NCBI GenBank assembly: GCA_964460115.1
Contig: CAYWPR010000010.1
Coordinates: 14,730 to 78,729 of the forward strand
DNA from: an uncultured Myxococcales bacterium
GTDB taxonomy: Bacteria > Myxococcota_A > Polyangia > Palsa-1104 > JAEUJZ01
Length of the DNA stretch: 64,000 bases
Reading direction: 5' to 3'
A program made the translations under genes and the position numbers. Positions within the stretch are counted from its first letter, which is position 1; each line of letters starts with the position of its first letter. Below are positions 19,842-62,520 of the stretch, piece after piece. Below the pieces are notes generated by a model, which saw nothing but the letters and a program-made list of their open reading frames with translations, was not told the DNA's origin and made no database searches.

Positions 19842-21323
19842 TTAATCTTTGTCGCGCAGACCGAGCTCTTTCATCTTGGTCTGCAAACTCTTGCGGCTAA
19901 TCCGCAAGTGCCTGGCCGCTTGCGTCACGTTGCCGCTCGTTTGCTCCAGGGCCTTGTGTATCATTTCGCGCTCGACCCGCTCGGTTTCCTGCCGAACGAT
20001 GTCTTTTAGCGAGGTCGGCGCGCGTCCGGCGATCGCGGCCGTTGCCAAAGTAGCCCCGGCATTTCCCGCGGCCCCCATAGGTCCTGCGATTCCAGCAGCG
20101 GCCGCCGTCCCCATTACCGCCGCAGTAACCGGAACGATAGTGGCCGGCAAATCATGCAGCGTCAGAATCGTATTGTCGGTAAGCAGCACCGCGCGTTCCA
20201 ATGTGTTTTCGAGTTCGCGTATATTTCCCGGAAACGGATAGCGCACAAGCGCATCGAGGGCATCGGCACTTATTCCGCTCACCGACTTTTTGAGCCGCTC
20301 ATTGAATTTGGCGATAAAGTGCTCGACGAGTAAATGTATGTCCTGTTGGCGTTCGCGCAGGGCCGGAAGATTGATCGGAACCACGTTCAGACGGTAGTAA
20401 AGTTCTTCGCGGAAGTTGCCTTGCGCGACTTCTTTAATCAGGTCGCGATTGGTGGCGGCGATGACTCGGACATCGACGTGCAACGTCTTTATGCCGCCGA
20501 CGCGCTCAAATTCCGACTCTTGAAGCACCCGCAAGAGCTTGACCTGCATGTCGACGGGCAACTCGCCAATCTCATCCAAAAACAATGTGCCGCGATCAGC
20601 GAGCTCGAAGCGTCCCGGCTTTGAGGACACGGCTCCGGTAAAGGCGCCTTTCTCATAGCCGAATAGCTCCGATTCCATCAAGGTCTTGGGAATTGCCGCG
20701 CAGTTAATTTTGATAAATGCTTCATTTTTGCGGCTGCTGTGCTCATGTAGCGCTCGCGCCACTAGTTCTTTGCCGGTGCCGCTTTCGCCGCTTATAAGCA
20801 CCGTCGACGGGGTATCCGCCACTTTTTCAATCAGCCCAAAGCACTGCTTTAACGCTGGCGCCGTCCCGATTAAGCCAAAGCGTCCAAGGCTAGTCGGCAC
20901 GGCATGAAAATTCATATGAGGCCGCGGCGCCTTCTGATCTAGCTCGAAGCTCGACAGCGCCTTGCGCACAACCTGCAAGATGTACTCTTGATCGGCGCCT
21001 TTTTCGATGTAGTCAAATGCGCCGTGCTTGACGGCCTCGACCGATTCGGTAATGCGGCCATAGGCGGTCCAGATGATCACTTTGAGCTCGGGATAATCGG
21101 CCAAAGCGCGACGAAACAGCGTCATGCCATCGAGCCGCGGCATGCGCAGATCGGTAATCAAGCAGGCGATTTCGCCGTCTCTGCTATGACAGTCCGACAA
21201 GACCGCTAAGGCCTCTTCACCGTCGCGGGCTTCCAAAACATCGTAGCCCTCGCGGCGTAGCAGCGAGCCCAATACTTTTCGCAAGTTGGGCTCATCATCA
21301 ACAACCAGAATACGTCTGTTCAT
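19842..21323 (-). CDS. Sigma-54-dependent two-component response regulator (NtrC family) with an unusual Ala/Gly-rich ~40-aa insert between the AAA+ domain and the HTH
   Basis: The REC domain reads [14 protein letters not shown]...DLRMP. The AAA+ domain has [15 protein letters not shown] and GAFTGA. The Fis-HTH is [26 protein letters not shown]. The insert reads [37 protein letters not shown]. Confidence 0.9.
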
Positions 21324-21477
21324 GGCGGTCGAAAAAAGCGCTTGTAAACCCACGCTCCGACGCTAGCACCAGCGGCCTGCGGTGGTCAAACTTCCCCGGC
21401 CAAACGCGGCGCAGAATGGATGGTGTTTGTTCTCTACATCCCCAAAATAGCGTCGGCTGTGCTAAATTGACGATAGA

Positions 21478-31908: not shown

Positions 31909-33087
31909 TTGCTGGTATTCTGCTACGGGGAGGAGAGTGGTATGGCACTCGCTGAACTATCTCAGCTACAGGTTCTGCTTAGCAAGGCCGACGGGCCCGA
32001 TGTGATCTTCCCGTGTATCCTGGCGGAAGGCGACAAGGCCGCGCAAAGCCAGGCGCTGGAACGCGAGTATCTACGCTTGACTCACATTGCCGATCCCGAA
32101 CGCTTTCGGGGCGATCCGCAAGCTCAAAGCACTGCAAGATGGGTCTTGACCCGGCTTTTTGAATTTCATCATGAAGCGGTTCTGGCCATCGGCGCCAGCG
32201 GCGATGAGGCCAGCGATGACGGGCTGACCTCCGGCCATTTTGCCGGTCTGCCGGCGGAAGCCTTATTTACCGTCACAACCGCCAAGGGAGTCTATCAGGC
32301 CGAGGCCCTTCTTGCCGAAGGAGATTTGTCAACCGTCTACCGAGGCCGCAAGCTACTAGTCACGCCAGATGAAACAGGAGCCGGCCGAGGGGTTGCAATC
32401 AAAGTTGCAGACGACAGCAGCAACAATGATCTTTTACAAAATGAAGTCCATAGTCTGCGGTTCCTAAATCGCGCAGCCACGCCGCAGCGCAAGCATCTAC
32501 CGGTTCTGGTTGACGAATTTCGGACGTCCGATGGCCGCTTTGGTACGGTCTTGCGGCTTATCAAAGGACATTCCTTTTCCGTCATTCATAAGCAGTACAC
32601 GCAGGGCGTTGACGGTCAGCATGCGGCGTGGATCCTGAAACGCTTGCTCAGCGTGCTTGCCCATGCCCATAGCCAAGGGGTCATACACGGCAACATCAAA
32701 CCGGAGCACATCATTGTACAGCCGCAGAATCACAATGTTGTGCTTCTGGACTGGAGCCATTCCATAAGGACCGCACAGCCTGCCGTTTTGAGCATTCCGG
32801 GAATCCTTTCGGACTACAGCGCGCCGGAAATAAGAGAAGAGCAATCGCCTACTGCGGCTTCTGATATTTATTCTGTAGGAAAATGCATGATCATGCTGCT
32901 TGGCGGAGACCTGCATTATGACAGCATTCCTTCCCACATTGATAAGCGGCTGACTTGTTTTCTGCAGACCTTTGTATGGCCAAATCCCCAAGAGCGCGCG
33001 CAAAATGCCGAGCAGTTGCATGAGAAACTGGTGCAGCTTCGTGAAGAAATCTATGGACCGCAGCAGTTCCTAGAATTTGGCATGTAA
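31909..33087 (+). CDS. Protein-kinase-like protein, predicted pseudokinase (HGN replaces HRD, DWS replaces DFG) with an N-terminal unknown domain
   Basis: Motifs present: VAIKVAD, VIHGNIKPEHII, LLDWSHS and YSAPEI. The catalytic Asp of HRD is replaced by Asn. Confidence 0.65.
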   Translation: MLVFCYGEESGMALAELSQLQVLLSKADGPDVIFPCILAEGDKAAQSQALEREYLRLTHIADPERFRGDPQAQSTARWVLTRLFEFHHEAVLAIGASGDEASDDGLTSGHFAGLPAEALFTVTTAKGVYQAEALLAEGDLSTVYRGRKLLVTPDETGAGRGVAIKVADDSSNNDLLQNEVHSLRFLNRAATPQRKHLPVLVDEFRTSDGRFGTVLRLIKGHSFSVIHKQYTQGVDGQHAAWILKRLLSVLAHAHSQGVIHGNIKPEHIIVQPQNHNVVLLDWSHSIRTAQPAVLSIPGILSDYSAPEIREEQSPTAASDIYSVGKCMIMLLGGDLHYDSIPSHIDKRLTCFLQTFVWPNPQERAQNAEQLHEKLVQLREEIYGPQQFLEFGM

Positions 33088-38702: not shown

Positions 38703-41357
38703 TTGAATGTGCGGCACGCATTCTCGCGAGCTGCTGATATTCTAGATGTCACCATGATGTCCGGACCTGCGGATCCGAAGTCCTCGCAAGCGCAACCAAG
38801 CTGGGTGGTTGGTCCGCCGGTGGCTCCGGCCAGCCGTCTGGGCCAGCTTATCGACGGTGAGTTTCTAATAAAGAGCATCCTTGGACAAGGCGAGCTCGGA
38901 GTCACCTACGAAGCCGACAACACCCGCCATAAACGCCGGTTCGCGGTGCTGATGCTCAGCCGCGGGCTAAAGCCTACACATGCCATGATGCTGGCGGTCC
39001 GCGATGATCTGCGACACGGGCAGCAACTGTCGGCCGCAGGCCTTATGCCGGTCAAAGCGATCGCCGATCGCGATGGCATTCCTGGCTTTGCCACCGAGCT
39101 TGTCGACGGCGAAACGCTGCGCAGCCGTTTGGGCCGCGGACCGCTGCGGGTCGAACGGGCGCTGGCCATCGCGCTCAGTTTGGCGCGGACCCTAGAAGCG
39201 GCCCACAAAGTTGGGCTCATACATGGCGATTTGCGCCCCGAAAATATTTTCTTGGTCCGCCCCGAAGCCAAAAGCGCCTTCGCCGGCAAGGTCATGGTCG
39301 TCGAACACGCGATGCATCACCTGCGCCGAAGAACTCCGGGCTTAGACGATCGGCTGCCTCTATACAAGCTGATGTATCGGCCCCCCGAGCAAGTCCTTGG
39401 CGAAGCCGGCGCCAGCGAGCAGGGCGACGTCTGGGTACTTGGAGCCATTTTGTATGAGTGCCTGACCGGCAAGCCGGCTTTTTACGCCGAAGAGCCAGAG
39501 TTTGTCCTCGATAATCTAGGACAAGCGCCACCGCCGCTGCAGCCTAATGCCGCCACCGGTCTTAGCGCCGAGCTGGCCGCGGCTTTCAATCTGCTTATCG
39601 CGAGCAGCTCGGCTCGAGCCCTGGAAAGCCGCGTCGCCAATATGACGGAACTGCGCGAGGGCATTGAACAGCTTGTGCGCGGCGCGCGGCTATTTTTGCC
39701 CGAAGTTCTGGTCGAGTCGCACAAGGAAGCAGCCACATCTGCCCAGCCGGCAAGCACCTCCAATCGGCGAATGAATCAACTGCTGCAGCGGCTGTCCGGG
39801 GTGTTTCCGCAGATTCCGCTTGTCGGCTCCGGGACTTCGTCGACGACTGACGCCACCGCCGCACCGCCTGCTACGCAGGGACAAGCATCGACGCAGGCTA
39901 GTGATCGCCCGACGACACAGCCCAAGCTAGTTCCGCTAGAACCCATTACTCCGGCCAAGGAGCGGGTCAATCGCATCCTGTCCAGATTGTCTGGGGCCTA
40001 TCCGACCACGGATGCGACACCGCAGACGCGGCCACCGATTGCCGATGCTCCGCTGGCGGGGCTATTTGCAGATTCGGCCCTATTGCCGAACCCGCCTGTG
40101 GATCCAGCGGCCCCCTCGCCACCTGCGCAGCCGAACTCACCGGCCGTGCCGGCCGCTCCGAACGTCCCGAGCGCGCCCGCGGCCCCCGCCGAACCGGCTG
40201 AAGCATCCCCGCCGGCCCCGCCGGCCGCACCGACTCCGCCGGCGCTCCCTGAAGCCCTTGCAGCAGTTGATACACCGACGCTGCCGCCGCGAGTACTGCC
40301 AATCTCGCAGCCCCTGCAAACTGTGGCGCCAGATTCAGTACCGCTCAGCGAGCAGTTGACAAGGCCAGCGATCATTCCGCTCTCCCAGTGGCCAAGTCCG
40401 CCCGCCAAAGCCGATGGGCCCGCCGCTGCCGTTTTGCTACAAGCCAGTGAGAGCGAGGAAGCGGTGGCTGATTCTGCCAAGCCCTCGCAAGAAACGCCGA
40501 CCTCGGCCAAAACCCCGCAACTGCTTCGTATCGAGGAGCGCCCCACCCGAGTGGACAGCACCCTGCCGGCGGCGCTGCTCGCGCCGCTGTCCGATCCTGC
40601 GCTGCCTACGCTGCACGTGTTCGCCAGTCTTCCGACGATGCCGAATTTGGCTGAAATTGCCGAGACGATTCATCCGTTAGGCGCTTCGGCATCTGAGCGC
40701 TTGCATGCACAAGCGACCCAGCCGGCGCTGCAGCGTTTACCCATCAATGAAAAAGCCACGCAGGCCAAACTGGATGCGCTGAGCCCGACCGTCATGGCTC
40801 CCTCTACCCCGACCGCGGTGTTGCCGATGCAAAGCGCCGCCTCTCATACATCGACCCTGTCTGCCCATCCTTCATTGATTGAAATATCGACGCTGGAACC
40901 TCTGCCGCTGGGCAATTCGGAACAGAAAGTTTCGGCCGAGCCGCTTACGCCGCCGCCGCTACCGATTTCGTCGCCGCTGCTGCCCGTGCCGCCACCAATG
41001 CCCGCAGCGGCCGCCGCGCCGCCAGCCGCCGAAACGACGGAGGACGAAAAGCAGCGGGCGCCGCGAGTTTCGCAACTGATTGCAGCGTTGCAAGCGCAGC
41101 AGATGCCGCCGCCCGCTGCGTCGCCACCTGACGAACCTCGACGGCGAATGTCGCCGGGGTTGATTGCGCCCGCACCCGACATTTTTGCGCCGGTCCAGAT
41201 TATGCGGCTCTCAAGCTCGAATGAAACTCAGGTTGCACCCGCCGAACAGCGAGGCGCCCTGGCCTGGGTGTTACGCCATCAAGAAGCCGTCGCCGCACTG
41301 GCGGGCGCGCTTTTGGTCATCCTTGGAGTGCTCGTTTATCTGCTATTTCACGCCTAA
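38703..41357 (+). CDS. Ser/Thr-kinase-like protein (probably a pseudokinase: no beta3 Lys, no DFG) with a >500-aa Pro/Ala-rich linker and a C-terminal TM tail anchor
   Basis: Motifs present: GELGVTYEAD, HGDLRPENIFLV and YRPPEQ. VAIK and DFG are missing. The C-terminal ALAGALLVILGVLVYLLF is a TM helix. An (N)xLLxRLSGxxP motif is duplicated. Confidence 0.7.
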   Translation: MNVRHAFSRAADILDVTMMSGPADPKSSQAQPSWVVGPPVAPASRLGQLIDGEFLIKSILGQGELGVTYEADNTRHKRRFAVLMLSRGLKPTHAMMLAVRDDLRHGQQLSAAGLMPVKAIADRDGIPGFATELVDGETLRSRLGRGPLRVERALAIALSLARTLEAAHKVGLIHGDLRPENIFLVRPEAKSAFAGKVMVVEHAMHHLRRRTPGLDDRLPLYKLMYRPPEQVLGEAGASEQGDVWVLGAILYECLTGKPAFYAEEPEFVLDNLGQAPPPLQPNAATGLSAELAAAFNLLIASSSARALESRVANMTELREGIEQLVRGARLFLPEVLVESHKEAATSAQPASTSNRRMNQLLQRLSGVFPQIPLVGSGTSSTTDATAAPPATQGQASTQASDRPTTQPKLVPLEPITPAKERVNRILSRLSGAYPTTDATPQTRPPIADAPLAGLFADSALLPNPPVDPAAPSPPAQPNSPAVPAAPNVPSAPAAPAEPAEASPPAPPAAPTPPALPEALAAVDTPTLPPRVLPISQPLQTVAPDSVPLSEQLTRPAIIPLSQWPSPPAKADGPAAAVLLQASESEEAVADSAKPSQETPTSAKTPQLLRIEERPTRVDSTLPAALLAPLSDPALPTLHVFASLPTMPNLAEIAETIHPLGASASERLHAQATQPALQRLPINEKATQAKLDALSPTVMAPSTPTAVLPMQSAASHTSTLSAHPSLIEISTLEPLPLGNSEQKVSAEPLTPPPLPISSPLLPVPPPMPAAAAAPPAAETTEDEKQRAPRVSQLIAALQAQQMPPPAASPPDEPRRRMSPGLIAPAPDIFAPVQIMRLSSSNETQVAPAEQRGALAWVLRHQEAVAALAGALLVILGVLVYLLFHA

Positions 41358-44872: not shown

Positions 44873-46558
44873 TTATCTCCGCTTGCCCGTCGAGCGCCAT
44901 CGGAATTTGGCCAGACGGGCCAGCCAGGTGACGGCTTCTTGCGGGGTTAGATGTCGAAAAATCTGACGATATACTGCGGGATGGCGCGCTGCGGTGGCCA
45001 GCATGAAGCGCACAAAGCTCGGCGCATCGACTTCGTCCTGCAAAAAAGCGGCGTAGGTCGAATCGCCCTGCTCCAAAAGTGTGGCAAAGGCCGCGTTTAA
45101 AAGCTGGTTGATGGCATTTTGATGCGCCAACGCGTCCTCGACCGAAGGCATCATCATCAAAGTCAGCCCGCCCATCACTTGAAGCGCCGGCGGTTCAAGA
45201 TTTGTCCACAGCGCATGCAGAGTGGAATGTTCCAGCTCGTCCTTGGCAAGCAGCCGAATCAGCCCCTGGCTGATGGGCCAGAAGGAACGAATCATCGAAC
45301 CAAATCCGCAAAACGTCAGCGGAGAATGACGCGCCGCCGCATCGCCAACTAGTAGCACGCGCCGATTCGGAGTCGCTGGCATGGGACCAAGCCGCGTGTA
45401 GGCCGGAATATAGCCATAGGTCGGCCGTACAAGCTGCAGGGTTCCGCTTTTATAGCGCGGCAGGGTGCTAAAAAATCGCTCATACAGGCCGAGAAGCGGA
45501 TGCTCTCCGGCGGCAATCGCGTCACGAAGCTGCTCTGCGCGCTGGTAATAAAAAAGATAGATGGTCATGGCGCCTGGCTTTGGCGCTGGAAAGCCTTCCC
45601 AAATGTGCTGCTGCTCTTCTTCTATGCCCTCGGTGGTGATTAAAATCTCACCGACTTCGGGATCCAGTTCTTGGGGCGCGGTGCCTAGGGTCAGCCCCTC
45701 CATTACGCCACCCACCGTTGGACAGCACAAATCAAAGCGGGCGTGCGGGCTGTGGGCGCCAAGCGCGTCGATAAATAGCCGCGCAAACATTCCGCGTCTC
45801 TGCGCTGGCGCCGCCACCGAAGCAGTCTCGACATACACGCCGTCGTGCGCGACACGATATCCCGTCAGCGCATGCATCTCCAAAAGCGTCGCCCCGGCAT
45901 CTAGGGCAATTCGGCGCAGACTTTGCAAAAAGGCAGCGGCATCGATCACGCAATCCAAAACATTGCGCACTGGATAGGCCGGCCCCTCGGCAAATCGGCA
46001 AATGCCGATGCGGTACTGCATTGCGATGAGTGCGTCGACCTCTTCCTGCGTAAAAAGGCCAGAGACGACAAGCGGCAAAAGCTCGCGCTTTGAGATGTTC
46101 CATTCGCGATGGCCAAAGCCGATTCGTCCTCGATCAAAGACGCAGACGCGAAGCCCGGCGCGGGCCAGAGTTGCGGCATAAATAAGCGACAGGCCGCCTC
46201 CAGCCAATACGACATCAAATTGCGGCACAGACCGAGAAAGCTTGCTCAGATCGCCTAGCTCACCTCCCGAGCTCGTCAGTGCATGCGCGCGGCTTTTAGA
46301 AAAACCCTGCTCCAGGGCCAAAAGATGATCTAGAGCATCGAGCCCCGAAAACGCCGGGTTTGGCGGCCCATCTGCGCCTTGTTTCATCCCAGTCCTTGCC
46401 GGAATGCTTGCAAATGCAGCAACGGTGCGCGGAAAACGTGACTTCAAAGCATCGCGTAGCACAGACCCTCTTTTCTTACTGCACGGGCGCAAAAGGTTAT
46501 GCGAAGATAGGCGCGAATGCGAATCCCTGTGCCCATGCATGGGGCTGCCCATTTTCAA
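44873..46558 (-). CDS. FAD-dependent oxidoreductase (lycopene-cyclase / geranylgeranyl-reductase-like). The start is likely the internal ATG near 46387.
   Basis: A dinucleotide-binding motif FDVVLAGGGLSLIYAATLARAGLRVCVFD and a second GD/LLVGDAAARHSP motif are present. Confidence 0.55.
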   Translation of the reverse strand: MKMGSPMHGHRDSHSRLSSHNLLRPCSKKRGSVLRDALKSRFPRTVAAFASIPARTGMKQGADGPPNPAFSGLDALDHLLALEQGFSKSRAHALTSSGGELGDLSKLSRSVPQFDVVLAGGGLSLIYAATLARAGLRVCVFDRGRIGFGHREWNISKRELLPLVVSGLFTQEEVDALIAMQYRIGICRFAEGPAYPVRNVLDCVIDAAAFLQSLRRIALDAGATLLEMHALTGYRVAHDGVYVETASVAAPAQRRGMFARLFIDALGAHSPHARFDLCCPTVGGVMEGLTLGTAPQELDPEVGEILITTEGIEEEQQHIWEGFPAPKPGAMTIYLFYYQRAEQLRDAIAAGEHPLLGLYERFFSTLPRYKSGTLQLVRPTYGYIPAYTRLGPMPATPNRRVLLVGDAAARHSPLTFCGFGSMIRSFWPISQGLIRLLAKDELEHSTLHALWTNLEPPALQVMGGLTLMMMPSVEDALAHQNAINQLLNAAFATLLEQGDSTYAAFLQDEVDAPSFVRFMLATAARHPAVYRQIFRHLTPQEAVTWLARLAKFRWRSTGKRR

Positions 46559-46593: not shown

Positions 46594-48228
46594 ATGACTA
46601 GCACTGCCCCCGCTGAGAAAAATCCCGCTGAAGGATATTTGATCGAATCAAGCAAGCGGCTGTCCGATTCGATGCTGTGGAATCTGCAGCGCCAGTATTA
46701 CGATCAGCGTGGTCTTAGCGCCTGGGCGTCGGGAGCGGTCCCTTCTTATGTGACCAGCAATCCGTACATCGCCAATGCCTACGCCCAAGTTGTGATGGCT
46801 TTTTTGCGCGATGCAGCAGCCGCGCCGCCAAGTCACAACGGTGCCTGCTTGTTAAAGCGCGACAAACCTATTTACATCGTCGAGCTGGCGGCTGGACATG
46901 GACGCTTTTCTTTCCTGTTTCTAAAAAAACTCCTATCGCTTTTGGCCCAATCGTCATTGCGTGACCTCAACATCCGCTACGTAATGACCGACTTTACCGA
47001 AAGCAATCTGCGCAGTTGGCAGGCCCAGCCGCTGTTTAAGCCCTTCATTGAATCCGGAGTCCTTGACTTCGGACTTTTCGACATCGAAAAAGATACCACG
47101 ATCAAGCTGTGGTACGGCGGACAGCCTTTGACGGCAACCGCCGTTGAGAATCCACTTATCATCATTGGCAACTATATTTTCGATACCTTGACGCAGGATC
47201 TATTCCGCTTTGACAACGGACAGGTTTACGAGATGCGGGTGACCACCTACCACTCGCATCAGCAGGCTCCGGATCTGTCAAATCCTGAGGTCATGTCGCA
47301 GTTCTCAATGACCTACGAACCGCATCTCATTAATCCTGCGACCTATTATTCGGAGCCATTTCTAAACCAATTGCTTTTGGAGTATCGCGATCGTCTAAGC
47401 GATACGACCATTGCCTTGCCGACCGGCGCGCTGCGGGGCATTTTTCGGCTGCTTGAGCTTTCGGGAAAACGCTGCTTGCTGCTTTCTTCCGACAAAGGCT
47501 ACACGCACGAAGATGAGCTGTTTTTCCTGACCAATCAGCACATCCAATTTCACGGCAGCTTGTCGATGATGGTGAACTTTCACTGCATGGGTTTGGCCCT
47601 TGGCCATCCGTCCATAGGCGGTCTCAGCATGGCCACCGCGCAGCGGCACATAAACCTAAAGACTGCGGGTTTTTTGGTTGGGGCCAAAGAGGAGATGTTT
47701 CGCGATACGCTGCTTTGTTTTCGCGAACAGATGGACGTCTTTGGACCCTATGACTTCTACACGCTGACGACGCAGGCTCGGCAAAGCACGCAAAATCCCC
47801 AAATCGAACAAATTTTGTGCCTGCTGCGCCTAAGTCAGTACGATCCGAACTTGGTTCTGGAATTCTCCAAGGAATTGCTCGAGCAAGCACCGGCGCTGAG
47901 CGAGACAATTAAGCAAGAGCTATATCTGGCCCTACTCCGCTGCTGGGAGAATTTTTATCCCTTGGGGCGCGATCTGCCCTTCGAAGTGGCGCGTATCCTT
48001 TTGGCCATGCGCCGTCCCAAAGAAGCCGTCCTATTCAACCAGCACTCGATTGAACTTTTCGGCGAACATCCCGTGACGCTGGGAAACATGGGAATCTGTT
48101 ATTATCACGCCGAAGAGCCCGAAGAAGCACTGCGCTGCTTTGATCTGTCGCTGCACTTGAATCCGAATTATGGACTGCCCAAAGCCTGGAAAGCGCGCCT
48201 AAGCGGCGAAAAAGACCGTCAAGCTTAG
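46594..48228 (+). CDS. Hypothetical protein with an N-terminal SAM-MTase-like (MidA/DUF185-like) region and C-terminal TPR-like repeats
   Basis: A IVELAAGHGRFSFLFL segment is present. C-terminal helical repeats were seen. The assignment is tentative. Confidence 0.45.
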   Translation: MTSTAPAEKNPAEGYLIESSKRLSDSMLWNLQRQYYDQRGLSAWASGAVPSYVTSNPYIANAYAQVVMAFLRDAAAAPPSHNGACLLKRDKPIYIVELAAGHGRFSFLFLKKLLSLLAQSSLRDLNIRYVMTDFTESNLRSWQAQPLFKPFIESGVLDFGLFDIEKDTTIKLWYGGQPLTATAVENPLIIIGNYIFDTLTQDLFRFDNGQVYEMRVTTYHSHQQAPDLSNPEVMSQFSMTYEPHLINPATYYSEPFLNQLLLEYRDRLSDTTIALPTGALRGIFRLLELSGKRCLLLSSDKGYTHEDELFFLTNQHIQFHGSLSMMVNFHCMGLALGHPSIGGLSMATAQRHINLKTAGFLVGAKEEMFRDTLLCFREQMDVFGPYDFYTLTTQARQSTQNPQIEQILCLLRLSQYDPNLVLEFSKELLEQAPALSETIKQELYLALLRCWENFYPLGRDLPFEVARILLAMRRPKEAVLFNQHSIELFGEHPVTLGNMGICYYHAEEPEEALRCFDLSLHLNPNYGLPKAWKARLSGEKDRQA

Positions 48229-48243
48229 TTTAAGTTTCGCACT

Positions 48244-48819
48244 TTATTGTCCGTCGATTTTTTCGAGTTTTTCGTCGATTTTTCGTGCGGACAGCGCCAA
48301 TAACTTGGCGGCCCCGGCCGACACAGAATCGCCAAATTCCCGCGAGCTTTGTTGTAACTGCTTGGCCAGCATCCGCTTCTGCGCGCGACGACGCAGATCA
48401 TCGGGGTTGGGAAAAAGGACGCCGCGCAGGTGCAAAAGCAGCCAGGTCGTCCACAGCACCATGGGCAGCGCCAACCACAGCGGAGTTCCGGTCCACACCC
48501 CCGTAAGAAAAAGGAGTCCATTTAGCGATGCAAAAGCGATAAAGTGCCCAGTCAGACGCCGATAGCCCAGTTGATGAATCTCGTGCTCGGCGGTCAAAAG
48601 CCGCTGGTCGACTTCGTACTGGGCTAGCGCGGTCGTCGCCTGCGCTTCGGAATAGCCAAGTTCCCGCGCGGTTTCGATAAGCTCACCGCGCGTAAAGCCA
48701 TTTCCCTGGGTCTCACTCGCCCCGGCATCCGGAGTTGCCAGTCGCTGCACGCGGCGCAGCACTTCATGCGCTTGCTGCTGGCTGTAGTGTCTTTTCGAAG
48801 TTCGATCTTGCGACGCCAT
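48244..48819 (-). CDS. 2TM-domain membrane protein
   Basis: Two adjacent TM helices are present (FIAFASLNGLLFLTGVW / LWLALPMVLWTTWLLLHL), flanked by charged helical regions. Confidence 0.5.
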   Translation of the reverse strand: MASQDRTSKRHYSQQQAHEVLRRVQRLATPDAGASETQGNGFTRGELIETARELGYSEAQATTALAQYEVDQRLLTAEHEIHQLGYRRLTGHFIAFASLNGLLFLTGVWTGTPLWLALPMVLWTTWLLLHLRGVLFPNPDDLRRRAQKRMLAKQLQQSSREFGDSVSAGAAKLLALSARKIDEKLEKIDGQ

Positions 48820-48947
48820 ATATATTTCAGTCTGCCCCACGCGATTTGACGCGGCAAGCCGCGAACAAGCTGCGCACAAACGCGTACAAGATCGCGCCCT
48901 TGATGCTTGGCGTTGCGCCACAAGCGTGCGAGTATCGTTGCCTCTTC

Positions 48948-50429
48948 ATGCGGCTACGCCAATACGATGATCTAGATGCCCTCGCGCTGGCTGAACTCAT
49001 TGCCAAAAAGGAGCTATCGCCGCAAGAGGTGCTGGAAGCAGCCATCGAGCGCATTACGGAACGCAATCCGCGCCTCAACGCGGTCGTGCATACTTTGTTT
49101 GAACGCGCGCGAGCGCGGGTCGCTGACCTGCCCGATGGCCCTTTGCGTGGTGTGCCTTTTCTGCTCAAAGATTTGAAACTGCAGCTTGCCGGCACGCCGA
49201 CGACAGGCAGCACGCGCCTGGCCATGTCCAAGATTGCGACCCAAAGCAGCGTGCTCACCGAGCGATACGAAGCCGCCGGACTGCAGATTCTGGGCAAGAC
49301 CAATACTCCAGAGCTTGGCATCATGGGGGTTACTGAGCCGGCCGTTCGTGGTCCTTGCAAAAATCCCTGGAACTTGGCCCATACCTCGGGCGGCAGTTCC
49401 GGAGGCGCAGCCGCAGCAGTAGCAGCGCGCATGGTCCCCATTGCCCATGGCGGCGACGGCGGAGGCTCTATTCGCATTCCGGCCTCGGCCTGCGGTTTGT
49501 TTGGATTAAAACCCACCCGCGGTCGCGTGACGATGGCGCCTTTTGCCGGGGAAGGATGGGGCGGATTTGTGCAAGAGCACGTGCTAAGCCGCTCGGTGCG
49601 CGACAGCGCAGCGCTGCTTGACATTGCCGATCCGCCCACCCCGGGCGAGCCTTATGGAGTTCCGGCCAAAGCCCGACCGTGGCTGGAAGAAGTCGGACGA
49701 GATCCTGGAAAGCTGCGCATCGCCTTCAGCAAACAGCCTTTTTATAGCGGTCAAACCCATCCAGACTGTGCAGCCGCTGTAGATGATTCCATCAAGCTGC
49801 TTAGCAGCCTTGGCCACGAAGTGGTTGAAGCTCGTCCCGCATTTTCGCGACAAGACATGGTCGCTGCCTACTTTTTGACGGTGGCCGTCCACGTTGCGCG
49901 GACTGTGGAGCAAATCAGCCAAGAAGCCGGCAAAAAGACGCCCGATGCGGCCGACTTTGAAGCGGTGACTTATCTTTTGGCATGCATCGGCTGGAAAACC
50001 AGCGCCCCCAAACTGCTGGCCGCGCAGCAGCTTATGCAAAAAACCGCACGCGACGTCGCAGGCTTTTTTCAGCAGTACGATATGCTGCTGACGCCGACTC
50101 TGGCCCAGCCGCCTGTGCGCATTGGGCAACTTGAAATGACGCGCAGCGAGCTTTTGCAATTGGCGATACTGCGCACCCTGCCCCTTGGCAAGCTGCTCGA
50201 TCTGGCATTGCACAACATGGGCGGCGCCAAGCTGGCCTATACGCCCAACACCCAGCTATACAATCAGATTGGTCAGCCGGCGATGAGCGTGCCGCTTTTC
50301 ACAAACGCGCAAGGACTGCCCATCGGAGTGCAGTTTGGCGCCGGCTTTGGAGAGGAAGCGAAGCTATTTCGTTTGGCGGCGCAGCTTGAAGCCGCCCGAC
50401 CTTGGGCAACGCGCAAGCCCCCCCTCTAA
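48948..50429 (+). CDS. Amidase (amidase-signature family, GatA-like)
   Basis: The amidase signature GGSSGGAAAAVAARMVPIAHGGDGGGSIRIPASACGLFGLKPTRG is present with a Ser-cisSer-Lys context. Confidence 0.85.
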   Translation: MRLRQYDDLDALALAELIAKKELSPQEVLEAAIERITERNPRLNAVVHTLFERARARVADLPDGPLRGVPFLLKDLKLQLAGTPTTGSTRLAMSKIATQSSVLTERYEAAGLQILGKTNTPELGIMGVTEPAVRGPCKNPWNLAHTSGGSSGGAAAAVAARMVPIAHGGDGGGSIRIPASACGLFGLKPTRGRVTMAPFAGEGWGGFVQEHVLSRSVRDSAALLDIADPPTPGEPYGVPAKARPWLEEVGRDPGKLRIAFSKQPFYSGQTHPDCAAAVDDSIKLLSSLGHEVVEARPAFSRQDMVAAYFLTVAVHVARTVEQISQEAGKKTPDAADFEAVTYLLACIGWKTSAPKLLAAQQLMQKTARDVAGFFQQYDMLLTPTLAQPPVRIGQLEMTRSELLQLAILRTLPLGKLLDLALHNMGGAKLAYTPNTQLYNQIGQPAMSVPLFTNAQGLPIGVQFGAGFGEEAKLFRLAAQLEAARPWATRKPPL

Positions 50430-50466
50430 TTCACATTCACAGGTTGGTTACAGCCCCGGAGACATC

Positions 50467-51027
50467 GTGGGATACATCTTTCACCCCGAAAAAATTCACG
50501 AAATCAGCAAACGTGGCATCGGTCTGCCACATCGTCAGATGTGCCAAGCAATCGTCGATGGTCTATCGCAGGAATATCGAAATCACATCGATGAAAATCC
50601 GCGCTGGATGTTCAATATGGCGGCGGGCGCCACCGGCTGCATGGCGCTACTGCATTGCTCGCTGACCGAATACATCATGATCTTCGGTTCGGCCATCGGC
50701 ACCGAAGGATATTCCGGCCGCTATCACCTGGACATCTACGATTCGGTGGTGGCCGGTGAAATGTGGACTTGTACCGAGGCCCAATTGCACGAAAAGCAGG
50801 TACATAGTCCCGGAGAGCTTGCTCACCTGCCGCGCCGCAGCACCAAAGCTTATCGCATCATCGACGGAACTTGGATGGTCGAGTATGGCCGAGGCCTGAT
50901 TCCTACGGCGCTTCCAGTAGGACTGGCCGATGCGGCTTTTAGCGCCATGGATGCGCGAACCATTTGGAAAACGCTGGTCAGCTACGCCCGACTGGCGACG
51001 CGCGAACTGGCGCAGGGCAAGATTTGA
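50467..51027 (+). CDS. ERG2 / sigma-1 receptor family protein (bacterial homolog, no N-terminal TM). The GTG at 50467 follows a GGAGA RBS; the alternative start is the ATG at 50539.
   Basis: Strong block similarity to sigma-1R/ERG2: LLHCSLTEYIMIFGSAIGTEGYSGRY, WMVEYGRGLIPTALPVGLADAAFSAMDARTIWKTLVSYARL. Confidence 0.7.
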   Translation: MGYIFHPEKIHEISKRGIGLPHRQMCQAIVDGLSQEYRNHIDENPRWMFNMAAGATGCMALLHCSLTEYIMIFGSAIGTEGYSGRYHLDIYDSVVAGEMWTCTEAQLHEKQVHSPGELAHLPRRSTKAYRIIDGTWMVEYGRGLIPTALPVGLADAAFSAMDARTIWKTLVSYARLATRELAQGKI

Positions 51028-51055
51028 TGCGGAGCGGACAAAGTAGGCGTACCTG

Positions 51056-52876
51056 ATGATCATCTTGGGCCTTAACGCCTACCATGGCGATGCCAGCGCG
51101 GCCTTGCTAGTCAATGGCGATTTGGTCGGAGCCGTCGAAGAAGAACGCCTGAACCGGCAAAAACACTGCGCCGGCTTTCCCAAGTTGGCAGTGGCAAGCT
51201 GTTTGTCGCTAGCACCGGCCGAAATTTCGGCGCAGGACATCGATCACGTCGCAATCTCACGCGATCCGCGGGCCCAGATTTTGCGCAAAGCCGCTTATCT
51301 AAGCGGTCAAGCATTGCACTTGGTCCTTTCGCCTGCTGCGCAAAGCCACCGCGCGAATTTTTTGGCAACGCTGCGCCAGCGTCTTTCCAATCGCCAGCGC
51401 TTGCACAAGCTGCACAACGTTCTGGCGGCGGCGCTTAGCGTTTCTCCGCAGCATCTGCGCGCCAAATTTCATGCCGTCGAGCATCATCGCGCCCATCTTG
51501 GCAGTGCATTTTTCGCTTCGGAATTTTCCGAAGCGGCGGTGCTGTCTCTGGATGGCTTTGGCGATTTTGTATCGACGATGTGGGGCATCGGCCGCGATAG
51601 GCACATCGATGTGCTGGGCGAGGTTTGCTTTCCTCATTCCCTGGGCGTGCTTTATACCGCTGTCTGCCAGTGGCTCGGTTTTGCCAAGTATGGCGATGAA
51701 GGCAAGGTCATGGGACTGTCGGCCTATGGCCGTCCGCGTCATCTTGAAAGGATGCGGGCGCTTTTGCAGCTAGGCGACTCGGATACCGGCCATTTCGCGC
51801 TGAATTTGCGCTACTTTCGCCATCATCGCGCAGGCGTGGACATGAGCTTTTTGGACGGAACGCCCAGCCTTGGCAAGCTGTATGCGCCAGCGCTCTGCGA
51901 ACTTTTGGGCGCGCCCCGTCCGCCCGGACCCGACATCGAAAAAGAGGAGTATTTCTGCGATGTGGCGGCCAGTCTGCAAGCCTTGCTGGAAGAGGCAGTC
52001 CTGCACATCTGCAAAGCGCTGTACCGGCGAACCGGACTGCGCCGTCTGTGTCTGGCCGGCGGAGTCGCTTTAAACTGCGTGGCCAACGGACGAATTCTTG
52101 ATGAAAGCGGATTTCGCGAGCTCTTTATTCAACCAGCAGCCGGCGACAATGGCACGGCGCTCGGCGCAGCGCTGTGGGTCGAGCATCAGATTCTTGGCCG
52201 ACCGCGCCGCTTTGTCATGCGACATGCCTACACCGGCCCGCAATTTGATGAAGCTGCCTGCCGCGCCGCGGTGAAACAATTTCGCAAAGATTTTTCGTGC
52301 GACTGGCCTCTCGAACGACTCAGCGAATTCGAACGCGTCGAGCGCGCCGCCAGCGCCATCGCCGATGGCGCCGTGCTCGGCTGGTATCAGGGGCGCATGG
52401 AATTTGGTCCGCGGGCGCTAGGACATCGCAGCATTTTGTGCGATCCGCGCAATCCGCAAATCAAAGAAGTACTCAACCGTCGCATCAAGCATCGCGAGCC
52501 ATTTCGCCCATTTGCTCCCTCGGTGCTTGCCGACCAAGCGGCGGACTGGTTCGAGCGCGGCGCTCCCTCGCCAGCTATGTTGCTAGTGGACCGCGTGCGC
52601 CAAGAACGGTGGGCCCTTGTGCCGGCGGTGACCCATCAAGATGGAACCGCGCGGCTTCAGACTGTATCCGCCGAATCTAGCCCGCTTTATTACGCGCTGC
52701 TGCAAGCTTTTTGGCGCCGCACCGGAGTGCCCATGCTGCTAAACACGTCCTTTAACGAGCACGAACCCATCGTCTGTACCCCCGCCGAGGCGCTGCACTG
52801 CTTTGCCAAAACCCACATGGACGTGCTGGTTCTAGGTCCGTTTTATATCGAACGCCCCGGCTGGCATCCGCAATGA
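51056..52876 (+). CDS. Carbamoyltransferase (NodU/CmcH family)
   Basis: The N-terminal block MIILGLNAYHGDASAALLVNGDLVGAVEEERLNRQKH is present, along with the conserved C-terminal domain. Confidence 0.85.
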   Translation: MIILGLNAYHGDASAALLVNGDLVGAVEEERLNRQKHCAGFPKLAVASCLSLAPAEISAQDIDHVAISRDPRAQILRKAAYLSGQALHLVLSPAAQSHRANFLATLRQRLSNRQRLHKLHNVLAAALSVSPQHLRAKFHAVEHHRAHLGSAFFASEFSEAAVLSLDGFGDFVSTMWGIGRDRHIDVLGEVCFPHSLGVLYTAVCQWLGFAKYGDEGKVMGLSAYGRPRHLERMRALLQLGDSDTGHFALNLRYFRHHRAGVDMSFLDGTPSLGKLYAPALCELLGAPRPPGPDIEKEEYFCDVAASLQALLEEAVLHICKALYRRTGLRRLCLAGGVALNCVANGRILDESGFRELFIQPAAGDNGTALGAALWVEHQILGRPRRFVMRHAYTGPQFDEAACRAAVKQFRKDFSCDWPLERLSEFERVERAASAIADGAVLGWYQGRMEFGPRALGHRSILCDPRNPQIKEVLNRRIKHREPFRPFAPSVLADQAADWFERGAPSPAMLLVDRVRQERWALVPAVTHQDGTARLQTVSAESSPLYYALLQAFWRRTGVPMLLNTSFNEHEPIVCTPAEALHCFAKTHMDVLVLGPFYIERPGWHPQ

Positions 52877-56301: not shown

Positions 56302-57030
56302 TCAAACAGTCGTCAGCGCAAACAATTCGACATCTACGCCGGGGCTGAAGTAGTCCGCGGTGCGCTGCTCGCCGTGTGCAATCTGTGCAGCAGATAGCAG
56401 CGTCTCTTCTATTTGGTGAACGCGCGCTTTGTGCAAAGGATAGGGCCGGTGATGAACCTGGCCGCGAAACAAACGACCGCTGGCGCTAGTCGCATACAGA
56501 AAATAGCGCTCGGCCAGAAAAAACTGCAAAGTTCCTACCTGGCTGGACGGCAGCACCTCTTCTACGGTGTACTGCAGATTCAAGCGTGCCTCGCCGCTGT
56601 GGCGCCGGCTTTGATAGTGCACCGTAGAACCATCGACGCGCAGGTCCATCGTCGCGTAGTGGTAGGGCAGATGGAAAAACGTTCGCGCGGCGTACACCGC
56701 CAGCCGATTGGCGGCATCGAGGCTGAAAAACCAGACGCCGGGATTGCCGCCTTCGTGCAAAACATAGGTGCGAACGTTGGTTTCGTGAAAATTGGCGGTT
56801 CCCGGAATCGCCGGCAGAAACCGAAACGGACGCACATTTTGCATCGTAAACGGAACCAGTCCGACGTAAGCGCGCCCCTCATAAGTATCAATGTCTAGCG
56901 ATTTGGGAACAAGGGAGCGCAAAAGTGCAACCGGCACTTCCCAATGCAAAAATAGCAAGCTGCGCCATTGCTGGTAGCCTTGCGGTGGACCAGCCGGGCG
57001 CTTTGTCGGTGTGATTCGATCAATGGTCAT
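56302..57030 (-). CDS. DUF2071 (YqjF-like) family protein
   Basis: Family blocks present: WRSLLFLHWEVP...YVGLVPFTM.NVRP...ETNVRTYV. Confidence 0.7.
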   Translation of the reverse strand: MTIDRITPTKRPAGPPQGYQQWRSLLFLHWEVPVALLRSLVPKSLDIDTYEGRAYVGLVPFTMQNVRPFRFLPAIPGTANFHETNVRTYVLHEGGNPGVWFFSLDAANRLAVYAARTFFHLPYHYATMDLRVDGSTVHYQSRRHSGEARLNLQYTVEEVLPSSQVGTLQFFLAERYFLYATSASGRLFRGQVHHRPYPLHKARVHQIEETLLSAAQIAHGEQRTADYFSPGVDVELFALTTV

Positions 57031-61323: not shown

Positions 61324-62520
61324 GTGATGAAAGAACGTATGGCAATGAATAAGCCGCATGTCCTAGTCATCGGCGCCGGAATCGGCGGTCTGTCGGCAGC
61401 GGTGGCGCTCAAGCGGGCCGGCTGCACCGTCGAAGTTCATGAACGGGCGTTGCAGTTGCGCCCAGTCGGCGCCGGCCTGACCATTCAGCCAAATGCCATG
61501 GCCGCCTTGCGAATTCTGAACGTTGGCAATCAAGTCGAGAAGCAAGGGCACATTTTGCCCATTGGCGGTCTGGCGCTGGCAAACGGAACCTACCTGAATC
61601 ATCTACCGGAGGCGCAAAGCCAAGCGCTCATCACCGAAGTAGGAGCTCCGGCGATCGGCATTCATCGGGCGACTTTGCATGAAATTTTGCTGGAAGCCGC
61701 CGGGCCCAAGGTCCTGCATCTAGGCCGTGCCGCAGTGCGTTATGAATTCGTAGACAGCGGCGTCCAAGTGTTTTTCAGCGATGGCTCTGTCGTCACAGCG
61801 GATGCACTCATTGGCGCCGATGGAGTTCATTCGATTTGCCGACGGCAACTGCTTGATGATGGAGAACCAGTATACGCGGGATATTTTTGTTGGCGTGGCG
61901 TGGCGCCGCTGGCCGCTCCACTAGGCAGCGACTGGGCCGGCGAAGTCTGGGGCGAAACAGCGCGCTTTGGCGGATGCCAAATTGACGGAGGCCGCTTCTA
62001 CTGGTTTGTCGTGACCGATGGCCCTGCGGGCCAAAAGGATCCATCAGAGCAAAGCCAAGCCGCCGTGTTAAAAGCCTTAAGGGGCTTTGGCACAAAGTTT
62101 CACGACGTCATTCGCGCAACCGCGGAAACCGCCATTTTTCGCAGCGATATCAGCGATCGCGATCCCGTGACCAAGTGGGGCGAAGCTAAAATGACGCTGC
62201 TTGGCGATGCTGCCCACGCCATGACTCCAAACCTTGGTCAAGGGGCCTGCCAGGCCATTGAAGATGCTCTGGTTTTGGCTCTGCAGATGCACCAAACGTC
62301 AGATATTTCGCTGGCCTTGCGCAACTATGAAAAAATTCGCCAGACTCGGGTCAATCGAGTCGTGCTGGCCGCGCGCCGTCTGGGTCAAGTTGCCCACTTT
62401 CGCCACCCGCTGGCCAAAAGCTTGCGCAACGGACTGCTGCGCCTCGTTCCCAATTCCTTTGTGCGCAAGCAACTGGCCGATGCCTGGAAATTGCCGTACC
62501 AAGGCTCCTTTGTCTGTTAG
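61324..62520 (+). CDS. FAD-dependent monooxygenase (UbiH/salicylate-hydroxylase-like)
   Basis: The GxGxxG block VLVIGAGIGGLSAAVAL, the DG motif and GDAAHAMTPNLGQGACQAIEDA are present. Confidence 0.85.
   Translation: MMKERMAMNKPHVLVIGAGIGGLSAAVALKRAGCTVEVHERALQLRPVGAGLTIQPNAMAALRILNVGNQVEKQGHILPIGGLALANGTYLNHLPEAQSQALITEVGAPAIGIHRATLHEILLEAAGPKVLHLGRAAVRYEFVDSGVQVFFSDGSVVTADALIGADGVHSICRRQLLDDGEPVYAGYFCWRGVAPLAAPLGSDWAGEVWGETARFGGCQIDGGRFYWFVVTDGPAGQKDPSEQSQAAVLKALRGFGTKFHDVIRATAETAIFRSDISDRDPVTKWGEAKMTLLGDAAHAMTPNLGQGACQAIEDALVLALQMHQTSDISLALRNYEKIRQTRVNRVVLAARRLGQVAHFRHPLAKSLRNGLLRLVPNSFVRKQLADAWKLPYQGSFVC

Follow-up and report, generated by a model that had tools for sequence, protein, structure and literature searches.

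The window, by which we mean the whole stretch of 64,000 nucleotides analysed here, contains at positions 50467..51027 of the forward strand a gene for a 186-aa protein that is a genuine member of the ERG2/sigma-1-receptor family, a bacterial relative of fungal ERG2. We think it probable that this protein is a bacterial homolog of ERG2-type sterol isomerases, attached to the membrane in a monotopic fashion, and that the genes flanking it are incidental neighbours. The window is a Myxococcota-like chromosome region, and the organism, one of the Myxococcota, is probably Polyangia-like.

The gene has a GTG start, and a GGAGA ribosome-binding site, read from the sequence, lies 4 nt upstream of it (50458..50462, forward strand). 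The position of this start is shared by nearly all of 57 aligned homologs, with the N-terminus M-G-Y-I/V-F, and the closest relative, a homolog with 73% identity, has an ATG at the equivalent position. Hence the GTG at 50467 is the right start, as the earlier note had assumed, and the internal ATG, considered there as an alternative, can be set aside. The ORF, its coordinates and its spacing are as first described, and both quoted block motifs, WMVEYGRGLIPTALPVGLADAAFSAMDARTIWKTLVSYAR and SLTEYIMIFGSAIGTEGYSGRY, are found in the protein. Two Logan contigs, assembled independently from two runs, match positions 47853-52510 and 50275-52295 with 100% identity, which rules out an assembly chimera or artefact, and the arrangement of the gene with its two neighbours is thus seen in two independent assemblies. 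Reads are available in SRR8797211 and SRR8797212. A recent horizontal insertion is ruled out as well, since the GC3 of the ERG2-like gene, 0.626, matches that of the neighbours (0.61-0.65). An antisense ORF (50647-51063) was considered as a competing gene and has no support against the evidence for the ERG2-like ORF. The gene is under purifying selection, with dN/dS of about 0.12 in comparison with the 73%-identical homolog.

The Pfam search yields a significant match to PF04622 (ERG2_Sigma1R), with E-value 1.7e-54 and 184.8 bits against the cutoff of 21. The match covers positions 22-210 of the 210 positions of the profile, only the N-terminal transmembrane (TM) part being missing. NCBIfam has no model for this family. 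In a phmmer search of the PDB, the protein matches 5HK1 with E-value 1.4e-34. The AF2 model of the 186-aa protein has pLDDT 95.5 and pTM 0.91, and Foldseek superposes it onto the human sigma-1 receptor (6DJZ/5HK1) with TMq 0.93 and rmsd 1.5 Å over 186 columns at 36% identity. The model shows a cupin-like beta-barrel together with a pair of helices at the N-terminus and a lid formed by two C-terminal helices; a TM anchor is absent. The family assignment proposed in the earlier note is thus upheld both by the profile match and by the superposition of the model.

The ligand-binding carboxylates are retained, together with a tyrosine: Glu139, Asp92 and Tyr69 of the window protein correspond to Glu172, Asp126 and Tyr103 of the human sigma-1 receptor. 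Identical residues are found at the human positions E172, D126, Y103, Y120, F107, M93, L95, I124, L182 and Y206, and the pocket tryptophans W89 and W164 are replaced by Ala55 and Ile131, respectively. The equivalent of E172 is invariant in 80 out of 80 bacterial homologs, and that of D126, in all 43 members of clade A. The sigma-1 receptor has the same two carboxylates, yet it is not an isomerase; hence conservation of these residues cannot separate an enzyme from a binder.

The N-terminal TM helix was said to be missing, and it is. The window protein begins where human residue 33/34 would lie, the maximal 19-residue Kyte-Doolittle mean is 1.42, compared to 2.24 for the human TM helix, and the 44-codon extension of the frame upstream of the start is not hydrophobic. 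This anchor is missing from every bacterial homolog of about 186 aa. The C-terminal helices, with mean hydrophobicity of 0.52 and hydrophobic moment of 0.59, resemble the membrane-facing α4/α5 of the sigma-1 receptor.

A scan of 185,579 species genomes found relatives of the window protein in 171. The fold is therefore rare in bacteria, as originally stated, but it is not new there, having been noted in the literature since 2009 (PMC2817430, PMC8237579, PMC10202945, PMC13277303). The conserved partner of the bacterial family is the ERG4/ERG24 sterol reductase (PF01222, 5.5e-123). In 42 of 80 loci it is encoded no further than 10 kb away on either side, mostly directly downstream on the same strand with the median gap of 27 bp (about 40 of the 80). 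Linkage to ERG24, oxidosqualene cyclase, SdmA/B-like or other sterol genes is seen in 45 of the 80 related loci. The closest genome-anchored homolog, 59% identical to the window protein, is in a same-strand run of genes for 3β-HSD, a Rieske protein, oxidosqualene cyclase, the ERG2-like protein and ERG24. The identity is 57% to the homolog from Minicystis rosea and 46% to the one from Methylotuvimicrobium buryatense.

In neighbour-joining trees without a fungal outgroup, the window protein and the homolog 73% identical to it fall with the ERG24-linked clade in 154 of 200 bootstrap replicates and with the second clade in 8, so that their placement is tentative. Neither has the adjacent ERG24 gene that typifies their clade. 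The second bacterial clade has no sterol neighbours; it includes Oscillospiraceae and Clostridia MAGs in which the gene is situated among housekeeping genes. At the family level, the coupling to ERG24 is tight in one clade and not in another, and the TM helix is absent throughout.

The upstream neighbour of the ERG2-like gene encodes a 493-aa amidase of the amidase-signature (AS) family (48948..50429, forward strand; PF01425, 2e-90), and the downstream one, a 606-aa NodU/CmcH-type carbamoyltransferase (51056..52876, forward strand; PF02543 and PF16861, with Pfam E-values of 1.2e-57 for Carbam_trans_N and 3.2e-69 for Carbam_trans_C). The coordinates agree with the order described earlier, all three genes being on the same strand with gaps of 37 bp and 28 bp. 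Given the shared strand, the short gaps and the lack of a predicted terminator between the genes, it is plausible that they form one transcript; GC3 is uniform over the three. The window amidase does not reach the equivalog cutoff of any NCBIfam amidase model, so no substrate specificity is assigned to it. The carbamoyltransferase has at least 7999 homologs at E<=1e-50, and its family is very widespread in the Myxococcota, in variable contexts.

This order had been read as suggesting a tailoring module of amide hydrolysis, isomerisation or binding, and carbamoylation. We judged its conservation both from the ERG2 side and from the carbamoyltransferase side. When ten window proteins were compared by tblastn to the 80 ERG2-like loci, homologs of the amidase were found near the ERG2-like gene in none of them, and the same was true for the carbamoyltransferase. 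In the closest relative, with 73% identity, neither gene is nearby; a Ser/Thr kinase, a MopE-like protein and one hypothetical protein are encoded on its flanks instead. Among the carbamoyltransferase orthologs, the nearest, at 66-73% identity, are preceded by rpoD or by genes of fatty-acid beta-oxidation, and the three nearest ones with long contigs have no amidase or ERG2 gene in the vicinity. No PKS, NRPS or terpene core genes are present within about 20 kb, and the only ketosynthase of the window is about 45 kb away. Neighbouring genes encode an AI-2E transporter, enoyl-CoA hydratase, MazG, TPR proteins, DUF2071, MlaC and similar proteins. The functional module is thus not supported, given the absence from the 80 loci and from the 73% relative and the unrelated carbamoyltransferase contexts. 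The placement of the ERG2-like gene between those for the amidase and the carbamoyltransferase seems to be a singular gene order and not the sign of a common pathway, and the best reading is that these two are incidental neighbours of the ERG2-like gene, not functional partners of its product.

Sterol genes were sought in the 64-kb window by applying Pfam to about 45 window proteins and by tblastn with ERG24, cyclase, Rieske, 3β-HSD and FAD-monooxygenase representatives. No cyclase, squalene epoxidase, CYP51, ERG24 or SdmA/B was found there. The FAD_binding_3 protein at 61324-62517, considered as a squalene epoxidase, is HpxO/salicylate-hydroxylase-like instead, and the 561-aa flavoprotein at 44873-46558 shows no more than weak similarity to the geranylgeranyl-reductase family. 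These 64 kb, the part of the genome covered here, thus contain no sterol gene, and a sterol pathway in the source organism is putative.

The function that we propose is as follows. The small TM-less protein would probably attach to the membrane by one face, through its C-terminal helices. The buried Glu139/Asp92/Tyr69 cluster in the cupin barrel of the sigma-1-receptor/ERG2 kind would serve to bind a cationic sterol intermediate and to stabilise it, as has been proposed for the Δ8→Δ7 isomerisation of the double bond. The substrates would most likely be C-14-demethylated, reduced Δ8 sterols, and the genes for their synthesis most likely reside elsewhere in the genome. The amidase and carbamoyltransferase genes may share a transcript with the ERG2-like gene, with no partnership in function. 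In the literature we found bioinformatic mentions only, and no biochemical proof of sterol isomerisation by a bacterial ERG2 homolog.

An alternative, which we consider possible but rather unlikely, is that the protein is a non-catalytic binder of sterols or hydrophobic amines, similar to the sigma-1 receptor, or a modifier of scavenged sterols or other triterpenoids, with no de novo pathway in the organism. It is consistent with the lack of sterol genes in the window, the loss of the ERG24 linkage in this lineage, the retention of E172 and D126 in a receptor known to have no isomerase activity, and the existence of the second clade without sterol neighbours. However, the window protein groups with the ERG24-linked clade in most of the neighbour-joining bootstraps, Polyangia possessing the whole pathway also carry unlinked homologs of C-8 isomerase, and sterol producers among the bacteria are chiefly Myxococcota (PMC4919349, PMC8237579). 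A broader scenario, to which we assign a low probability, has this lineage recruiting the TM-less fold beyond de novo sterol synthesis. The protein would then be a sensor or binder of sterols or cationic lipids, or an isomerase working on a non-sterol or a scavenged sterol together with the amidase and the carbamoyltransferase, which are putatively co-transcribed, and the genome may lack the cyclase. If so, it would provide a simple soluble bacterial model of ligand binding of the sigma-1-receptor kind.

The operon suggested in the earlier note, where the ERG2-like protein isomerises or binds a sterol-derived or non-sterol intermediate that is also deamidated and O-carbamoylated, seems very unlikely to us. 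The short same-strand spacing with no terminator-like site, the uniform GC3 and the confirmation by two assemblies agree with it, but it is hard to reconcile with the lack of co-occurrence in the 80 loci, in the 73% relative and around the three nearest carbamoyltransferase orthologs, with the absence of core biosynthetic genes nearby, and with the great size of the carbamoyltransferase family, which is conserved across diverse contexts. Finally, isolation of the gene from ERG24 and other sterol genes could mean that it is a decaying, functionless remnant of a former sterol cluster; this is hardly credible for an intact ORF of family-typical length that has a ribosome-binding site, all invariant residues and the low dN/dS. 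We retain the reading of an ERG2-type isomerase homolog with incidental neighbours.

Bacterial homologs have been catalogued in Plesiocystis pacifica, Enhygromyxa salina, Minicystis rosea, Sandaracinus, Methylotuvimicrobium/Methylomicrobium and a Calothrix cluster (PMC2817430, PMC10202945, PMC8237579, PMC13277303). In Lee et al. 2023, 'C-8 isomerase' homologs of cyclase-bearing bacteria are tabulated in Supplementary Data 1; the gene adjoins that of the C-14 reductase in Methylomicrobium, whereas the copies of Minicystis rosea, Sandaracinus and UBA1660 are unlinked (PMC10202945); homologs of the same kind are reported in PMC13277303 and PMC2817430. Hence the window copy is of a kind already known in sterol-making bacteria and reveals no new pathway. 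It adds one more member from the Myxococcota and demonstrates that the gene can sit apart from its usual ERG24 partner. Such homologs bear on the debated myxobacterial origin of eukaryotic late sterol-modifying enzymes (PMC8237579) and on the possible double-bond configurations of bacterial sterols (PMC13277303). More useful than the single copy are the family-level by-products, the consistent absence of the TM helix and the distinction between a clade tightly coupled to ERG24 and one that is not, and structural work could profit from a soluble, high-confidence model of this sigma-1-receptor fold.

The bacterial 'C-8 sterol isomerase' homologs resemble the window protein in length (about 186 aa), absence of the TM helix, family and invariant residues. 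The copies from Minicystis, Sandaracinus and UBA1660 are, like that in the window, unlinked to other sterol genes, whereas most clade members have ERG24 directly downstream, and the window copy has the amidase and carbamoyltransferase genes instead. The human and Xenopus sigma-1 receptors (5HK1, 6DJZ, 7W2B) share with the window protein the fold, the Glu172/Asp126/Tyr103 triad, most hydrophobic residues of the pocket, and the hydrophobic and amphipathic C-terminal helix pair. They differ from it in having the N-terminal TM helix and the two tryptophans, W89 (Ala in the window protein) and W164 (Ile). Moreover, the sigma-1 receptor is a non-enzymatic ligand-regulated chaperone, whereas bacterial members of the family show linkage to sterol enzymes. 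Fungal ERG2, the sterol Δ8-Δ7 isomerase, belongs to the same PF04622 family, the likeness being judged by the family profile. It has an N-terminal membrane anchor that the window protein lacks, and the activity of the bacterial proteins is putative; however, its presumed chemistry and its position in the pathway after C-14 reduction fit the linkage to ERG24 in bacteria.

The ERG2-like gene (50467–51027, plus strand) encodes 186 amino acids and matches the Pfam family ERG2_Sigma1R (PF04622) with E = 1.7e-54 (184.8 bits, profile positions 22–210 of 210). It lies between an amidase gene (48948–50429; Pfam Amidase, 2e-90) and a carbamoyltransferase gene (51056–52876; Carbam_trans_N, 1.2e-57, and Carbam_trans_C, 3.2e-69), all on the plus strand and separated by 37 and 28 bp, respectively. 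This agrees with the earlier note, which had described the spacing and, from motifs that are indeed present in the ORF, had assigned the protein to the ERG2/sigma-1 receptor family. The proposed start, GTG at 50467 preceded by GGAGA at 50458–50462, is also borne out: it aligns with the conserved N-terminus MGYIF of the homologs, and ATG stands at the equivalent codon of a 73%-identical homolog. Neither the ORF nor its in-frame upstream extension contains a TM segment, so the N-terminal TM helix is missing, as suggested. No terminator-like site was found between the three genes, and they may well be co-transcribed. An assembly artefact as the origin of the trio is ruled out, because two sequencing runs gave separately assembled contigs that are 100% identical to this region. 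Recent foreign insertion of the ERG2-like gene is rejected as well, since its GC3 is the same as that of its neighbours. The dN/dS ratio against the 73%-identical homolog, about 0.12, indicates purifying selection.

A phmmer search against PDB sequences identifies the human sigma-1 receptor (S1R; 5HK1, E = 1.4e-34). With a 57-sequence alignment as input, AlphaFold gives a model of pLDDT 95.5 and pTM 0.91, of which all 186 residues superpose on 6DJZ/5HK1 (query TM-score 0.93, rmsd 1.5 Å); the next-best folds are generic cupins with TM about 0.45. Residues are numbered by the human S1R sequence, consistent with the PDB alignment from the phmmer search. The window protein shares the ligand-binding residues E172, D126, Y103, Y120, F107, M93, L95, I124, L182 and Y206, the first three as E139, D92 and Y69; hence the Glu172 and Asp126 equivalents, whose conservation was in question, are kept. 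W89 is replaced by Ala55, and W164 by Ile131. Every one of the 80 bacterial homologs extracted has the Glu, and the Asp is invariant in the clade of the window protein. The two C-terminal helices are close to S1R α4/α5 in hydrophobicity and amphipathicity, which suggests that the protein is monotopic, with one face on the membrane in place of the absent TM anchor.

A search of 5.8 billion proteins yielded 66 homologs, named "C-8 sterol isomerase" or "sigma non-opioid intracellular receptor" in their sources, nearly all of 185–187 aa and without a TM helix. A scan of 185,579 species, each represented by a single genome, yielded 171 relatives, and the neighbourhoods of the best 80 were analysed. 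These come from Myxococcota/Polyangia (including Minicystis rosea), Methylococcales (including Methylotuvimicrobium buryatense), Bryobacteraceae and other Acidobacteriota, Rokubacteria, Planctomycetota, and a few Clostridia and Oscillospiraceae MAGs. The best named matches of both the ERG2-like protein and the carbamoyltransferase are from Myxococcales, Kofleriaceae, Polyangia and Minicystis. Clustering of neighbouring ORFs reveals one dominant partner, a protein of about 428 aa encoded directly downstream on the same strand at a median gap of 27 bp. It is an ERG4/ERG24 sterol reductase (PF01222, 5.5e-123), found in 42 of the 80 loci. Oxidosqualene cyclase, Rieske oxygenase (SdmA-like), 3β-HSD/epimerase (SdmB/ERG26-like) and FAD monooxygenase recur less frequently. 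The closest genome-anchored homolog (L001, 59% identity), from a Lake Baikal Myxococcales MAG, belongs to a row of genes on one strand: 3β-HSD, Rieske, cyclase, ERG2-like and ERG24. Guilt by association thus argues strongly for a family-level role in sterol biosynthesis, beside the C-14 reduction step.

In the NJ tree, rooted with vertebrate S1R, the bacterial proteins form two clades. In clade A (43 loci) ERG24 is directly downstream in almost all cases; in clade B (37 loci) most genes have no sterol neighbour. The window protein and the 73% relative form a monophyletic pair in 200/200 bootstraps; the pair joins clade A in 154/200 and clade B in 8/200. By this NJ tree, their lineage probably derives from the ERG24-linked type and has lost the linkage.

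In 11 clade B members the Asp126 equivalent is Phe, with Asp two residues earlier (motif DDYF). Strong ERG2_Sigma1R homologs are also encoded in MAGs of Oscillospiraceae, Clostridia and Bacillota (loci L043, L046, L051, L067), which is unexpected, as anaerobes are not known to make sterols. One of them (L051:9980-10549, 228 bits) lies amid the housekeeping genes MetRS, ThrRS and RuvX, with a non-conserved polytopic membrane protein 7 bp on.

The earlier note had proposed that the closely spaced trio forms a tailoring module. This now seems very unlikely: homologs of the window amidase or carbamoyltransferase are found in none of the 80 loci, and the genes beside the 73% relative (L083/L084) encode a Ser/Thr kinase, a hypothetical protein and a MopE-motif protein. 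The carbamoyltransferase family is very large (at least 7999 matches at E ≤ 1e-50), and the nearest orthologs among the matches listed (66–73% identity) lie downstream of rpoD, or of thiolase and a multifunctional β-oxidation enzyme, with neither an amidase nor an ERG2-like gene nearby. The amidase scores under every NCBIfam equivalog cutoff, and the carbamoyltransferase far under the NodU cutoff. Nothing supports a shared pathway. We consider it most likely, with reasonable confidence, that the neighbours are incidental and that the TM-less, membrane-surface ERG2 homolog would catalyse sterol Δ8–Δ7 (or closely related) double-bond isomerisation. The main rival, a non-catalytic role or binding of scavenged sterols, is rather improbable. 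Among the roughly 45 proteins of the 64-kb window annotated with Pfam, none is a cyclase, a CYP51, an ERG24, a squalene epoxidase or an SdmA/B protein.

In locus L088 (8923-13794; ENA ERZ27282990, contig k141_159467), a carbamoyltransferase ortholog (67% identity) is situated 1–6 kb from genes for a methyltransferase, an FA_hydroxylase (ERG25/ERG3-like), a 3β-HSD and a cytochrome P450, a group that looks like a sterol-modification cluster; the link of the family with sterol genes is probably a coincidence.

Pfam annotation of about 45 window proteins shows a Myxococcota-style core chromosome with citrate synthase, Mfd, TrpRS, PurA, PurD, MlaC, an outer-membrane efflux protein and TPR proteins. 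The regulators include two σ54-dependent activators (6762–8867, plus strand, and 19845–21353, minus strand), of which one carries FHA and GAF sensor domains, and several Ser/Thr kinases (among them 31909–33084 and 38703–41354), a typical myxobacterial repertoire that supports the taxonomic assignment. Just upstream of the trio is a divergent pair, a 561-aa flavoprotein weakly similar to the geranylgeranyl reductase family (44873–46558, minus strand; E = 7.8e-7) and a 544-aa Methyltransf_28-plus-TPR protein (46594–48228, plus strand), neither with an NCBIfam assignment. A DUF2071 protein (56305–57030, minus strand; 232.9 bits), which has a secondary resemblance to acetoacetate decarboxylase, adjoins the MlaC lipid-transport and efflux proteins. 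In chromosomal surroundings, a 400-aa protein (4773–5972, minus strand) with an N-terminal T4 gp19 tail-tube domain (PF06841, 1.7e-31) may represent either a component of a contractile-injection-like system or the remnant of a prophage.

Bacterial ERG2 homologs are already known, and the window gene is a further example. Desmond and Gribaldo 2009 (PMC2817430) described an ERG2 ortholog from Plesiocystis pacifica as well as mycobacterial homologs, and Hoshino and Gaucher 2021 (PMC8237579) discussed whether ERG2 may have passed from myxobacteria to eukaryotes. A 2026 paper (PMC13277303) reports both C-14 reductase and C-8 isomerase in Methylotuvimicrobium. In the literature we came across no study that tested a bacterial ERG2 homolog biochemically. 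"C-8 isomerase" homologs in cyclase-bearing bacteria were tabulated by Lee et al. 2023 (PMC10202945 Supplementary Data 1), where the gene adjoins the C-14 reductase in Methylomicrobium and is unlinked in Minicystis rosea, Sandaracinus and Myxococcales UBA1660. The unlinked position of the window gene thus has precedents among sterol-producing Polyangia.
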